Positions 8,160 to 23,057 of a DNA stretch of 64,000 nucleotides are shown here, piece after piece (within the stretch, counting starts at the first letter, position 1; every line of letters starts with the position of its first letter). The translations under genes were made by a program, and so were the position numbers. The notes below the pieces were generated by a model. That model was not told the DNA's origin. It worked only from the letters and a program-made list of their open reading frames with translations, and did not search any database. The DNA comes from an uncultured Phycisphaerales bacterium (GTDB lineage Bacteria > Planctomycetota > B15-G4 > CAYZWU01), in contig CAYZWU010000007.1 of assembly GCA_964482235.1 (NCBI GenBank), positions 3,053-67,052 on the forward strand. Reading direction: 5' to 3'.

Positions 8160-8846
8160 TTACTTCAACTTGGAGGAAGTGATCTTGACCACCGGCGTAA
8201 CTCCCAGCGGATCAGGCTCGTACGGCAGGTCCCAGCCGTCCTTCTCGTAAGCCTTTCCACCCGAGGGCAGAAGGTTGTAGTAGATGAGCTTGCCATGGAT
8301 GTAGTTCCAGTCCGCCAGGAGCGGATCCGTTTCCGCATAGACCTTGTTGTACTTCAGGATCGCGCTGTTGATCACCTCGAGCTCCTCGAGGGTCTTGCCC
8401 CGTCTGATGTGGGTCACATCCACGGTGATCGAGATGTCGTCCTTCGTATCCTGGACGGCGTCCGGGCCGGCGCTGCAAACGAGATAGGTCGAGTCGCCCG
8501 TGGCCTTGGCCACGTAATCCCGCCCCCATTCGTCCTGCTCCGGCTTGGTGCGCCCTGAGCTGAAGAGCGAGACGCCGGGAGAGTAGTAAGGCCCGGCCCA
8601 GCCCTGCAGCTGGCTCTTCTCGGCCATGAGATCCAGGATCCCCGTGGGGAACTGCGACGTGTCGCTGAAATAGTTCTCCACCGCCTCCTGGATGGTGTTG
8701 AGCTCCCCGGCTTCCTTCTTGGCCTTCTGTCGCTTGACCTCCGAGGTGAGCGCCGGCGTGATCGTTCCCACGAGGATCACGATGATCGACATGGCGATGA
8801 CCAGCTCGATGAGTGAAAATCCGTTCTTTCTGCTCTCTGGCTTCAC
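8160..8846 (-). CDS. gspG: GspG-like major pseudopilin
   Basis: Prepilin leader MKPESRKNG followed by FSLIELVIAMSIIVIL, with Glu at +5. 228 aa. Confidence 0.75.
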   Translation of the reverse strand: MKPESRKNGFSLIELVIAMSIIVILVGTITPALTSEVKRQKAKKEAGELNTIQEAVENYFSDTSQFPTGILDLMAEKSQLQGWAGPYYSPGVSLFSSGRTKPEQDEWGRDYVAKATGDSTYLVCSAGPDAVQDTKDDISITVDVTHIRRGKTLEELEVINSAILKYNKVYAETDPLLADWNYIHGKLIYYNLLPSGGKAYEKDGWDLPYEPDPLGVTPVVKITSSKLK

Positions 8847-8854
8847 GGTCCCTC

Positions 8855-10054
8855 CTACATGGAAGAGTACATCGAATAGATCGGCAGCAGTGCTCCCAGG
8901 AGAATGAATCCCACGAGAACGCCGGCGACGATGATGATCGTGGGCTCCAGCATCGATATCATCCGGCTCACCTTGTTCGGTATCGTCTTGTCGAAGTAGT
9001 TGTAAGCGGCTTCCATCGTGTCCACGATTCGGCCTGTCTTCTCCCCGATCGACACCATGCGAGGGAGAAGCAGGTTCATCTCATTGAATGCGGCAAAGGC
9101 GGAGGATAGCTTGTTTCCGTTCTTCACTTCCTCGATCGCCTTGTCGGCCAGCATGCCGATGTACGAGTTGCCGCTCGACGATCCCGAGATCTCGATCGCC
9201 TTGACGATCTCCACTCCGGACGAGAGGAGCGTCTTGAAGATGACGGTGAACCGGGCCAGGACGATGTCGGCCACGATCGATCCGAGCACCGGTATCTTGA
9301 ACAGCGCCCTGTCCATGAAGATTCGCCCGGCCTTGAAGCGCTTCACCACGGCGATGGTAACGGGGATGCCCACCAAGATGGAAACCAGAGGCTGCCAGTT
9401 TCCCCTCAGGAAGTCGGACGCCGCGATCAGCATCCTGGTGATGACAGGGAGCTCGATGTCGGAATCGGCATAGATGCCCATGATCCTCGGCAGCAGGAAG
9501 GTGATCAGGAGGATGCAGAGACCTGTCACCGCGAAGATCAGGAAGCTGGGATAGATCAGGGCCTGCCGCATGGTGCCCCTGATCTTGGTTTGCCATTCCA
9601 TCTGCTCCCTGTACCTGTCGAGAACCACGTCGAGGGAGCCTGTTTCTTCGCCCGCCCTGATCACGTGGACGAAGATCGTTCCGAAGAATCCCTTGTACCT
9701 CTCCACCGATTCGGAGAGGCTCATGCCCTGTTCCACGTTCTCGAGGATGTTGGTGAGGATCTGCCTCAGCGTTCCCTTTCTCGTCCGCTTGATGAAGTCC
9801 TCCAGCGCCGTGGTGACCGGAATGCCCGAGGAGTTGGTGATCGACAGGTAGATCAGGAAGTCGGTCAGGTCCGCCGACTTGATCTTGCCCGACACGGGCT
9901 TGGCGGTCCTGGGCTCCTTCTTCTCCTTGATCCCGGTGATGATCTTCCCGTCCTTCTCGAGGGTCTTCTCGAGCGATTTCCTGGTGGGAGCGGTGATGAC
10001 GCTCGACTCCAGGAGGCCTTCTTCGGACAGGGTCTTGATCGTATAGACTGGCAT
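8855..10054 (-). CDS. gspF: type II secretion / type IV pilus inner-membrane platform protein GspF/PilC
   Basis: 399 aa with two repeats of the GspF domain and three TM segments. The C-terminus LLGALLPIYSMYSSM is typical. Confidence 0.9.
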   Translation of the reverse strand: MPVYTIKTLSEEGLLESSVITAPTRKSLEKTLEKDGKIITGIKEKKEPRTAKPVSGKIKSADLTDFLIYLSITNSSGIPVTTALEDFIKRTRKGTLRQILTNILENVEQGMSLSESVERYKGFFGTIFVHVIRAGEETGSLDVVLDRYREQMEWQTKIRGTMRQALIYPSFLIFAVTGLCILLITFLLPRIMGIYADSDIELPVITRMLIAASDFLRGNWQPLVSILVGIPVTIAVVKRFKAGRIFMDRALFKIPVLGSIVADIVLARFTVIFKTLLSSGVEIVKAIEISGSSSGNSYIGMLADKAIEEVKNGNKLSSAFAAFNEMNLLLPRMVSIGEKTGRIVDTMEAAYNYFDKTIPNKVSRMISMLEPTIIIVAGVLVGFILLGALLPIYSMYSSM

Positions 10055-10071: not shown

Positions 10072-11787
10072 TCAGATAATGACGTCGTTGCAGACCCGGA
10101 GCACCTCGGAGATCGTCGTCTCCCCGCTCAGCGCTTTCTTCTTCCCCGAGTCCACGGTGAAGTCCATTCCCTTCTTCTTCGCCAGCTTGATGAACTCCTT
10201 GTCGCTGGCCTTGGCGCTCACGAGCTCCGAGTACTCGTCGTCCATCACGAAGAGCTCGTAGATCACCGTTCTCCCGGCGAAACCGGTATTGTGGCACGAG
10301 GCGCACCCCTTGCCCCTGTAGACCACCACTTCCCCGGCATCGGGCCCGACGAGCCAGCGGGCCTCGGCTTCCGACGCCTGGACCGGTTCGCGGCACTTCG
10401 GGCAGATCGCCCTCACCAGGCGCTGTCCCAGGACGCCGCTCAAGCTCGTGGTGATGAGGTAGTGGGGGATGCCGAGATCCATCAGCCTCTGCACCGCACC
10501 CATGGCGTTGTTCGTGTGGATGCTGGAGAAGACCATGTGCCCCGTCATGGACGACTTGATGGCGATTGCGGCCGTCTCCGGATCCCTGATCTCGCCCACC
10601 AGGATCACATCGGGATCCTGCCTGAGGATCGTTCTCAGGCCGTCGGCAAAGGTGTATCCGATCTCGGCGTCCACCTGGGACTGCCTGATCAGGGGAAGGG
10701 AGTACTCGATGGGATCCTCCACGGTGACGACCTTCTTGGTCAGGGCGTCGACGAGCAGGATCAGCGAGTAGAGCGTCGTCGTTTTTCCGGAGCCCGTGGG
10801 GCCTGACACGAGGAACAGGCCGTGAGACATGTTGGCAATTCCGTCGAGATCCTTGTAGGTCTCGGGATCGACGCCGAGGCTCTTCAGGTGAAGGTTGACG
10901 CTGCTTCTGTCCAGCAGGCGGATCACGATGTTCTCGCCGTGGGCCGTCGGCATGATCGAGACGCGGAAATCGACGTTGAACGATCCCTTCTTCCTGGAGA
11001 ACCTGCCGTCCTGCGGCTTTCTCCGCTCCGTGATGTCCAGGTTGGAGATGATCTTGAATCGCGCCAGGACGGGCGCGATCATGTCGCGGGGCAGCGTGTC
11101 TCCCTGCTGGAGGATACCATCCTGCCTGTAGCGGATCCTCAGGACCTTCTCCTCGGGCTCGATGTGGATATCGGTGGCCTGCCTGTGGAGCGCCTTTTCG
11201 ATGATGTCGTCCACCGTCTCGGTGGCCGACTGGATATCGATCTCCTCGTCTTCGACCTCATCGAGAGGCTTGTTCCCGGCGTTATCCACCTTGAAGGATT
11301 CACCGATCGCCTTGGTGATGTCCGCCTGGGTGGCGGCGTAGATCGCGATGTTGCAGCCGAGGCTATCCTGGATCTGGTCGATCAGGATGATGTTGGCCGG
11401 ATCGGCCATGGCCACGGTGGTCATGCCGTCCTCCTCGATCTGGATGGGGATGAAGAGGTTCTCCCTGAGATAGTTCTCGCTGAAGCTGTGGACCAGGGTG
11501 CCGTCGAGCTGGAAGGTGGAAAGCTTGACGAAGGGGACGCCGAGATCGTCGCTCAACGCCTCGTAGAGATCGTTCTCGCTGAGGAAGCCGAGCTGGATCA
11601 GGATCTGGCCGATGGGCTCGTTGCGTCTTTTCTTTTCCTTGAGCGCGATCTCGAGCTGCTGATTCGTGATGTACCCGCCTTCGACCAAGCGGTCGCCCAT
11701 CTTCTTTTTCGTGTCGATGAAGCTCTTTGCAGGTGCATCCATGTCTTTCGATCCAGTGACGGAGTCTTTTCTCGTAACTGAGTGCAA
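10072..11787 (-). CDS. gspE: type II secretion / type IV pilus assembly ATPase GspE/PilB
   Basis: N-terminal T2SSE_N domain, Walker A motif GPTGSGKTTT, and a C-terminal tetracysteine motif (CPKC...CASC). 571 aa. Confidence 0.9.
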   Translation of the reverse strand: MHSVTRKDSVTGSKDMDAPAKSFIDTKKKMGDRLVEGGYITNQQLEIALKEKKRRNEPIGQILIQLGFLSENDLYEALSDDLGVPFVKLSTFQLDGTLVHSFSENYLRENLFIPIQIEEDGMTTVAMADPANIILIDQIQDSLGCNIAIYAATQADITKAIGESFKVDNAGNKPLDEVEDEEIDIQSATETVDDIIEKALHRQATDIHIEPEEKVLRIRYRQDGILQQGDTLPRDMIAPVLARFKIISNLDITERRKPQDGRFSRKKGSFNVDFRVSIMPTAHGENIVIRLLDRSSVNLHLKSLGVDPETYKDLDGIANMSHGLFLVSGPTGSGKTTTLYSLILLVDALTKKVVTVEDPIEYSLPLIRQSQVDAEIGYTFADGLRTILRQDPDVILVGEIRDPETAAIAIKSSMTGHMVFSSIHTNNAMGAVQRLMDLGIPHYLITTSLSGVLGQRLVRAICPKCREPVQASEAEARWLVGPDAGEVVVYRGKGCASCHNTGFAGRTVIYELFVMDDEYSELVSAKASDKEFIKLAKKKGMDFTVDSGKKKALSGETTISEVLRVCNDVII

Positions 11788-11935: not shown

Positions 11936-12472
11936 CTACTTCCAGACAGGACCCTCGCATACGTAGTAGGAGCCGCTGCTCTTGTTGTCGTGCCTGAAGT
12001 TGCCTGCCTTCCTGTTGCCATCGTCGAGCTCGTCGTCGATCCGCACCAGCGTATCCTTGGTCAGGGAGTCGCTGATGGTGATCCAGACCTCGTTGCTCGA
12101 CGTGCCGTCATAGTTGAAGCCGTTTTTCTTGCCGTAGTTGTAGTCATACGAACCACCCCAGGGATGTTCGGTGGGCCAGCGATCCAGGTAGGGACCTTCC
12201 CACTTGTCCCGATAGGCCTTCGGCACCTTGGAGGACGACATCAGGCCGGGGTCCGTGTTCTTGGACACGTCCTTCGGAATGAATCCCACGTCCGCGTAGA
12301 TCGAATTGAGGGCGTTCTTGATCGTCTTCAATTCGGTTTCGAGCCTGCTGACCTTGGACTTAGTGACGAGCTTGTTGATCTGTGGGGTCACCACTGCCGC
12401 GAGAATCGCAAGCACCGACACCACGATCACCAGCTCGATCAGCGAAAAACCCATCTCTCTCTTTCGTTTCAT
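11936..12472 (-). CDS. GspG-like pseudopilin, probable major subunit
   Basis: Leader MKRKREMG followed by FSLIELVIVVSVLAILAAVV. The C-terminal motif is W.GPYLDRWP.EHPWGG.Y.Y. A strong terminator follows it, as is usual for major pilin genes. Confidence 0.8.
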   Translation of the reverse strand: MKRKREMGFSLIELVIVVSVLAILAAVVTPQINKLVTKSKVSRLETELKTIKNALNSIYADVGFIPKDVSKNTDPGLMSSSKVPKAYRDKWEGPYLDRWPTEHPWGGSYDYNYGKKNGFNYDGTSSNEVWITISDSLTKDTLVRIDDELDDGNRKAGNFRHDNKSSGSYYVCEGPVWK

Positions 12473-12617
12473 TCCAGATCTCCTTTTCCACTGTGTTTAC
12501 TTGGCTATCGCACAACCAGCTTTGTGTGATCTCCCCGCTTTATCGGAGAGTTCGAAAAATGACTTGAATCCCATTTCGGAAATCACTGATTTATTTGGTT
12601 CTTTTTCCTTCACATAT

Positions 12618-14139
12618 CTATCCGTCTGCCGGAAAAGCCTCGCCGGAGCCTGTTCCGGCCTCGTCGGACTTCGCCGTCTTCATCTTGTAGCTCGAGGGGA
12701 TGTTCCCGGCGTCCTTCGGATCCACGAGGGTCGGTGTGATCATCACGATGAGCTCGATCTTCTCGGTTCTCGTCGTTGTTCCCTTGAAGATGTGTCCGAG
12801 CAGGGGAAGATCCTTCAGGAAGGGTACACCGCTCCTCTCGTCGAACGTGTATTCCTTCAGGAGGCCACCGATCACGATCGTGTTGCGGTCATGGACCCCG
12901 AACTCCGTGACGATGTGCCGGTGATTGATCACGGGCACGCCGTTGAACGTGTCTATCTGCTCGCTCACATCCTGATCGATCGAGAGGGAGACGCATCCGT
13001 CCTCCATGATCACCGGAGTCACCTTGAGCTTGATCCCCACCTCGATGAACTCCACGCTCTCCATGGTCTGGGAGCCGAGCCCCTGCTGCGTAGGATCCGC
13101 GTTGGTGGTCACCGTGGTTTCGACGTAGGGGATGTCCTCGGTGATGTCGATCGAAGCTTCCTTGCCGCTCTTGGCCACCACGTTGGGCCGCGAGATCACG
13201 TTGACCCGCGTGAGCTTGCTCAGCAGATTGAGCGCGCCGTTGATATCCGCATTGTCGCCCGCGATGGTGAACTCCACCGCCCGCGATGGTGAACTCCACA
13301 TCCCTGGACGGGGTGAGAAGGTTCGAGATGAACGACGCCGATGTGTCGTCCATGTGAATGTTCGCCAGATCGATCATCGCGCCGAGCTCGTAGAGATCGG
13401 TGAGGGAGAACTCGACGATCTTGGCCTCGATGAGAACCTGCTTCTCGCTCCGATCCACCGACCGGATGAACGTCTCGAGGTTCTCGTGAACCGCCCTCGT
13501 GGCGGTGACGGTGACGATGTTGTTCGCCGTGTTGACGACCACGCTCCCTTCCTCGCCGATCATCGACCGGATCATCTCGTCCATGCCCGTTGTCGTGGCG
13601 GAGTTCAGCTGATAGATCCGGGTCAGCATCTTCGACGGATCGTCCCTGGTAAGGATGAAGACGTTGCCCCTCTTCTCGATCCGGCACCGGTGCGTGCGGC
13701 AGAGGAGGGTGAGAGCATCGTTGATCGTGACGCCGGGGAAGGAGAACTCGACGATCTCCGTGAAGTTGCCGTTCAGCAGGAGGTTGATGCCCGCCGCCTC
13801 CACGATCATGGTGATCGCGTTCCCCAGGGTGGCGCCCCGCAGCTCGAAGGAATAGAGCTCCGTGTCGTCGACGAAGACGATGTCCTCGAAGTCCATCGTC
13901 CCTTCGATCTCGGTCTCCCCGGTCACGCGGGTCCCGGCAGAAGGCTCGACCATCACCTCCTCGTCGTATGGTCTTGACTCCACCAGGGTCTTGCAGTATT
14001 CCGCGAATTCCATGGGAGTGAGGAGATTGTCTTCCTTCACCGAACATCCCGCTCCCGCGAGAAGGCAGAGTGCCAGCGCAGAAATGGCGGCAGGCCGGAT
14101 CATGGCTTTGAATAGTGACACAGCAACCCTCGCTGACAT
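12618..14139 (-). pseudogene. gspD: secretin GspD/PilQ, with the reading frame disrupted by a 22-bp tandem duplication
   Basis: ORFs 12889..14139 and 12618..13301 overlap in different frames. Both encode VEFTIAG at the junction. Removing one repeat unit restores a continuous protein of about 500 aa with lipoprotein signal, N domains and a C-terminal secretin domain (IIGGL...GVPFLKDLPLLGHIF). Confidence 0.75.
13257..13300. repeat. 2 x 22-bp direct tandem duplication (gcccgcgatggtgaactccac[c/a])
   Basis: The two units are read directly from the sequence and differ by one mismatch. The unit length is not a multiple of 3, so the duplication causes the secretin frameshift. Confidence 0.9.

Positions 14140-22968: not shown

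Positions 22969-23057
<89 letters not shown>

Follow-up and report, generated by a model that had tools for sequence, protein, structure and literature searches.

A secretin gene of an uncultured marine planctomycete, disrupted by a 22-nt tandem duplication and also found in intact form on the same haplotype

What becomes of a surface machine when the gene for its outer-membrane channel carries a perfect tandem repeat whose length does not fit the reading frame? The question is raised by one gene in a 64,000-nt stretch of DNA from an uncultured Phycisphaerales bacterium, called here the window. From the letters of this stretch, the original prediction had recognized a GspD/PilQ-type secretin gene interrupted by a 22-bp tandem duplication, and it had left three explanations side by side: (i) a real inactivating mutation, (ii) slipped-strand on/off switching of the secretin, or (iii) an artefact of assembly. 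The gene and the two overlapping minus-strand ORFs into which it is divided lie where that prediction had placed them:

12618..14139, minus strand: the disrupted secretin gene as a whole, 499 aa with one unit removed
12889..14139, minus strand: upstream ORF of 416 aa, in which native residues 1-287 give way to 129 out-of-frame residues
12618..13301, minus strand: downstream ORF of 227 aa, made of 8 junk residues followed by native residues 281-499

The repeat itself occupies positions 13256..13299, where CGCCCGCGATGGTGAACTCCAC is found twice back to back, the copies matching at 100% without an indel (TRF score 88). It had earlier been given as 13257..13300; the repeat stands, and its register is corrected by one base. 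This rotation is the reason why the two units first described differed in their last letter, since in the exact register the copies are identical. The bases on either side, a T on the left and an A on the right, do not lengthen the match, so that the breakpoints show no microhomology, and at the junction between the copies of the two-unit allele ...GAACTCCAC is directly followed by CGCCCGCG... In a brute-force scan, this is the sole exact tandem duplication with a unit of at least 12 nt in the 64 kb, and a TRF run over the whole window yielded no other perfect two-copy repeat with a period above 8 nt. Given the base composition of the window, about 1e-8 repeats of 2 x 22 nt are expected by chance. 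No hairpin or quasi-palindrome that would favour duplication was found at the site (z-scores +1.5 and +0.7). Read in the direction of the gene, the copies are as follows:

13278..13299, minus strand: copy 1 of the unit, encoding native V281-G287 plus one extra base
13256..13277, minus strand: copy 2 of the unit, in the native frame, read by the downstream ORF

Because 22 nt amounts to 7 codons plus 1 nt, the unit splits the gene in the way originally described: translation exits the native frame after codon 287 (Gly287), shortly ahead of the conserved channel domain, and stops 129 codons further on. The heptapeptide VEFTIAG, residues 281-287, is encoded once in the frame of each ORF. When one unit is deleted, a continuous protein of 499 aa is obtained, in agreement with the earlier estimate of about 500 aa. 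The identification as a secretin is also borne out on this repaired protein, in which Pfam Secretin (PF00263) covers residues 299-466 with E = 3.3e-42 and profile positions 2-169 of 169, Secretin_N (PF03958) covers residues 173-234 with E = 5.9e-8 (33.3 bits vs. a cut-off of 28.2), and the alignments to solved GspD and PilQ structures begin at residues 289-294. Since both the domain and the structural alignments start beyond the break, the entire conserved core is lost from the 416-aa upstream ORF, which lacks the whole channel domain. Its truncated product would keep the signal peptide and the periplasmic N-domains and would be deprived of the C-terminal pore-forming secretin core. The 227-aa downstream ORF cannot substitute for it, because it has no signal peptide and its start is an accidental out-of-frame ATG. 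Judged by this domain content, cells with two units would be unable to build the outer-membrane channel of the apparatus.

Which secretin is it? Like GspD, PilQ and MshL, it combines a C-terminal Secretin domain with one Secretin_N domain, and its operon holds a GspE/PilB-type ATPase, a GspF/PilC-type platform protein and GspG-like pseudopilins. Unlike these proteins, it falls below all three curated NCBIfam cut-offs: 179.9 bits vs. 351.35 for the GspD equivalog TIGR02517, 169.2 vs. 284.35 for PilQ (TIGR02515), and 129.2 vs. 250.2 for MshL (TIGR02519). It is also short (499 aa), and its identity to named GspD, PilQ or MshL proteins is only about 27%, its closest relatives being unnamed proteins of Phycisphaerales MAGs. 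The N-terminal hydrophobic stretch ends in a cysteine (LLAGAGC) that is aligned in most homologues, and this cysteine at the end of the signal peptide makes the secretin a probable lipoprotein.

The frameshift has left its mark on automatic annotation. Gene callers label the 227-aa downstream ORF "Secretin." The JGI gene calls omit the 416-aa upstream ORF and place instead, at window positions 13354..13977 on the plus strand, a 207-aa ORF that lies opposite the N-terminal half of the secretin gene, a stretch that the ENA and Logan calls leave empty. This antisense call is a side-effect of the frameshift. Both public entries are thus by-products of a single lesion, and the proper label for the locus is a disrupted 499-aa secretin.

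Could the split gene nevertheless yield a working channel, either by ribosomal +1 frameshifting, which would leave VEFTIAG repeated, or by the joint action of the two ORF products? An in-frame repeat of seven residues might be tolerated if the frame were restored; no support for either route was found. The junction contains neither a homopolymer nor a slippery run, and we therefore see no basis for translational rescue. The accidental ATG and missing signal peptide of the downstream ORF also speak against a two-part channel, as does the fact that the homologues are single polypeptides. Such a functional split gene is the least probable of the readings considered here, and we give it almost no weight.

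Is the duplication present in the cells at all? Public contigs were collected by exact-protein look-up of the neighbouring genes and of the 227-aa ORF, and the many contigs found in this way are 99.8-100% identical to the window. Nine distinct ones cross the site. Counted as assembled contigs rather than reads, eight carry two units and one carries a single unit, the two-unit contigs being 99.9-100% identical to the window:

two units: JGI 3300013118 (L006), on a 116-kb contig that matches the window without a difference over 26 kb
two units: JGI 3300009431 (L007)
two units: JGI 3300013120 (L008)
two units: JGI 3300009378 (L010)
two units: JGI 3300009008 (L092)
two units: Logan SRR8062346 (L001), BioSample SAMN10231894, 314 m
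two units: ENA, run SRR8062351 (L009), BioSample SAMN10231891, 295 m
two units: ENA (L093), BioSample SAMN10231913, run not listed, 267 m
one unit: ENA ERZ23499048 (L004), run SRR8062348, BioSample SAMN10231892, 295 m

NCBI also has the exact 227-aa product, encoded on a 166-kb contig. The samples are seawater from the oxygen-deficient zone of the Cariaco Basin, Venezuela (project PRJNA326482), and the listed runs all belong to the >2.7-um fraction; accessions, depths and fractions are those given in a supplementary table of PMC12220078. Literature searches with the accessions yielded such sample data and no account of the organism. The two-unit allele occurs in at least three BioSamples, at 267, 295 and 314 m, while JGI records and SRA runs may partly share libraries, so that independent samples are possibly fewer than assemblies. 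A metagenome contig collection queried with a pattern common to both alleles gave no match and evidently does not include these samples.

An assembler can produce a perfect repeat from a genome that has only one unit, for instance by joining overlapping contig ends: a naive join at an overlap of k or k-1 has this outcome, and 22 nt is close to the small k-mers that assemblers use. The identical two-unit sequence is found, however, in the interior of eight distinct contigs from three sources (JGI, ENA and Logan) and several samples, not in one assembly or pipeline and not at a contig join. Moreover, one and the same ENA pipeline gave two units in SAMN10231891 and SAMN10231913 and one unit in SAMN10231892. 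A de Bruijn contig built with k above 23 contains the copy-to-copy junction only if the reads do, and Logan probably uses k = 31. An artefact of assembly, the third of the initial explanations, is in our judgement very improbable and effectively excluded. With the two-unit allele in most public assemblies and the intact gene in one, the duplication is a natural knock-out allele and not an assembly error.

The one-unit contig L004 shows what the intact gene looks like. Apart from the 22 nt, only a single base, 54 nt from its own end, sets it apart from the window, and it encodes residues 16-499 of the repaired secretin without a change. The continuous succession of signal peptide, N-domains and core, which the window allele lacks because of the break after residue 287, is present there. 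As the sole contig with the intact allele, it is short (3.9 kb) and probably a low-coverage scaffold. SAMN10231891, source of the two-unit contig L009, and SAMN10231892, source of L004, are replicate samples of the >2.7-um fraction at 295 m. Both states therefore occur in one population, as seen from separate replicate samples: this almost clonal natural population carries a null allele at high frequency, together with the intact allele on the same haplotype. Both the inactivating mutation and the on/off switching originally envisaged are compatible with this arrangement.

Some sequence variation within the gene was noted along the way. L093 has four C>T changes within 15 nt inside the secretin, and L009 has two changes (window 13206..13495). 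Several of these private changes are non-synonymous and lie in or beside the conserved SVDRSEKQ motif (e.g., V228M and S231N). Such clusters may reflect relaxed constraint on a pseudogene, or errors in low-coverage scaffolds.

Which of the two states came first? Comparison with orthologous loci, one of the checks proposed at the outset, gives a single copy in a sister species and in more distant Phycisphaerales relatives. The sister species (L106, Logan SRR24302418) is 80% identical at the nucleotide level and 78% at the amino acid level, and its gene order matches that of the window from the AIR carboxylase gene to the last pseudopilin; its secretin is intact, 494 aa long, and contains a single GTGGAGTTCACCATCGCCGGGG. 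Nine homologues of 478-525 aa align colinearly, each with one V-FTIAGD motif. The secretin is unsplit in 79 of 80 related loci, and the operon with its unsplit secretin is conserved in Phycisphaerales MAGs. On this comparative evidence the ancestral state is one copy. An alignment scan of a reference-genome collection placed the nearest matches among Phycisphaerales and other Planctomycetota MAGs, with secretin identity of at most 52%, and a protein scan of the same collection returned nothing; the species is absent from these representative genomes. A protein homologue search found none above 78% identity; it also missed the 227-aa fragment that its collection contains, so its failure to find the full-length 499-aa product does not count as evidence that this product is absent.

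The one split secretin among the 80 related loci belongs to a distant relative, the Planctomycetota MAG PDA_C_MAG.29 (JAPKHC010000005.1, L025 8459..8660). There too the homologous gene is frameshifted. The lesion, a small indel that involves no tandem repeat, lies in the same linker, a poorly conserved stretch that directly precedes the Secretin domain (at about residues 260-291 of the query). This may be a genuine second case, or else the MAG may contain a sequencing error.

What, then, is left of the machine around the broken gene? The operon continues downstream of the secretin with these genes:

11936..12472, minus strand: GspG-like pseudopilin, 178 aa, with a prepilin N-methylation motif
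10072..11742, minus strand: assembly ATPase of GspE/PilB type, 556 aa, with an N-terminal MshEN domain (cyclic-di-GMP-binding type)
8855..10054, minus strand: inner-membrane platform protein of GspF/PilC type, 399 aa
8160..8846, minus strand: second GspG-like pseudopilin, 228 aa
4526..7924, minus strand: four more operon genes, of 481, 203, 251 and 188 aa

Among the last four, the 481-aa and 203-aa products have no family match, the 251-aa product has a weak PilP/T2SSB-like C-terminus, and the 188-aa product, encoded by the last gene of the operon, is a third GspG-like pseudopilin. All genes of the operon other than the secretin are intact in the window and conserved in relatives. As its secretin scores below the curated GspD, PilQ and MshL cut-offs, the apparatus is best called type IV filament/T2SS-like. 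The ATPase matches the NCBIfam model "cyclic di-GMP-binding domain, MshE-related" with 67 bits vs. a cut-off of 38, and its MshEN domain hints that the apparatus is under cyclic di-GMP regulation. No second secretin is encoded within the 64-kb window; one elsewhere in the genome could render the loss phenotypically silent.

A few further features of the region deserve mention. Between the secretin and the first pseudopilin, positions 12473..12617 form a strongly A+T-rich spacer in a genome of 62% G+C. Several public contigs of the population end in or beside this spacer (about 12500-12730), which seems to be a weak point of coverage or assembly. Polymorphism of the repeat was considered as a cause of the nearby contig breaks and rejected, since none falls where a bubble between one-unit and two-unit forms predicts it; most breaks lie in the A+T-rich spacer, beside it, or at the 3' end of the secretin gene. 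At window 8498..8556, within the gene of the 228-aa pseudopilin, the contigs L002/L102 (SAMN10231913; one ENA scaffold) show 11 substitutions, one +1 indel and one -1 indel in 60 nt, which create a stop codon. A small inversion in L002 was discarded as an explanation because the cluster of C/G differences is not a reverse complement, and the patch, a run of C's, looks like low-quality sequence and not like a real second disruption of the operon. A tRNA-Leu(GAG) at 22969..23057 on the plus strand is the sole Rfam or ARAGORN match in the 64 kb.

We consider it probable that the two-unit form is a plain segregating null allele, potentially revertible. A genuine 22-bp tandem duplication arose inside the secretin gene of a type II secretion/type IV pilus-like operon, in an uncultured, particle-dwelling, Phycisphaerae-related planctomycete of the Cariaco Basin oxygen-deficient zone. 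The event appears to be recent, because the rest of the operon is undamaged. The two-unit allele is the majority form in most sampled assemblies, with the intact one-unit allele persisting beside it. Slippage during replication, or recombination, can reduce a perfect tandem repeat to one copy, and the knock-out is consequently reversible in principle.

Does the population make use of this reversibility? In a phase-variable system the secretin would be turned OFF by duplication and ON by precise loss of one copy, at rates sufficient to regenerate both states continually, and the switch would serve as bet-hedging, for instance where phages use the pilus or the secretin, or between attached and free states. 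Several observations accord with such a switch: the two states sit on an otherwise identical haplotype (22 nt and one contig-end base apart in L004 and the window), their source samples are replicates that share depth and size fraction, the remaining operon shows no decay, and there is precedent in the pneumococcal cap3A and Ralstonia phcA genes. Other observations fit a switch poorly. Nothing favours the forward step from one to two copies, as there is neither microhomology at the breakpoints nor a hairpin, and no repeat tract pre-exists in the one-unit allele or in the sister species. All eight disrupted contigs share the identical duplication, as expected from one event inherited by descent, and no three-unit allele was seen among the contigs that cross the site. 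A nearly clonal population, moreover, cannot separate a revertant from a surviving ancestor. Duplication/collapse phase variation is accordingly a minority reading, to which we grant perhaps some credence but no preference. The fuller version, in which the window has captured the OFF state of a natural switch and ON and OFF cells live at the same depth in a ratio set by phages or by attachment and dispersal, strikes us as marginally less likely again.

Most sampled members of the population are apparently without the outer-membrane channel of an otherwise intact machine, and an intact allele persists. The locus thus makes a concrete case for selection acting on surface machinery in oxygen-deficient waters, with phage avoidance, cost saving and switching as possible drivers. 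If reads show both alleles within single samples together with recurrent switching, it would become a rare documented instance of phase variation in an uncultured environmental bacterium, and cap3A-like variation would have been observed directly in nature. Without recurrent switching, the case is one of ordinary recent pseudogenisation.

How does this allele compare with known systems? The classical contingency loci made of simple sequence repeats are homopolymer or tetranucleotide tracts in surface genes of Neisseria and Haemophilus; their long tracts of 1-7-nt units are selected and present in the ancestral state. As in these loci, an out-of-frame change in copy number turns off the gene of a surface structure. 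In contrast to them, the unit here is 22 nt, the ancestral allele is single-copy and no tract exists: the functional alleles of L004 and L106 contain the unit only once, with no run of 1-7-nt units.

A closer parallel is the type 3 capsule gene cap3A of pneumococcus, which undergoes phase variation by tandem duplication (Waite et al., 2001, as summarised in PMC11163986). As in cap3A, a perfect tandem duplication within the ORF gives the off state and a precise single copy the on state, and both forms occur in one population; an exact single-copy counterpart of the disrupted allele, predicted to be active, does exist here. In cap3A, however, many different duplications are found at different sites, whereas in the secretin one identical 22-nt duplication recurs in 8/8 disrupted contigs, none of them of different extent. 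According to the same summary, cap3A reversion was measured in culture, while the secretin allele is known from assemblies alone.

The tandem duplications of phcA in Ralstonia solanacearum, which revert in planta, offer a second parallel (Poussier et al., 2003, as cited in bioRxiv 10.1101/2023.04.27.538605). In both genes a spontaneous tandem duplication creates a null allele able to revert exactly, which in phcA, by that account, happens under selection. There, phcA is a regulator in a cultured pathogen and its reversion was shown experimentally; the secretin, unlike phcA, is a structural outer-membrane protein, and metagenome assemblies are the only record of the uncultured marine bacterium that encodes it.

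Frameshifting tandem duplication is thus a known kind of lesion, and switching by duplication and collapse a known mechanism. What is new is only the present instance in an uncultured marine planctomycete. Its support from the population is unusually good, and its predicted repair is matched exactly by a wild-type allele found in nature.
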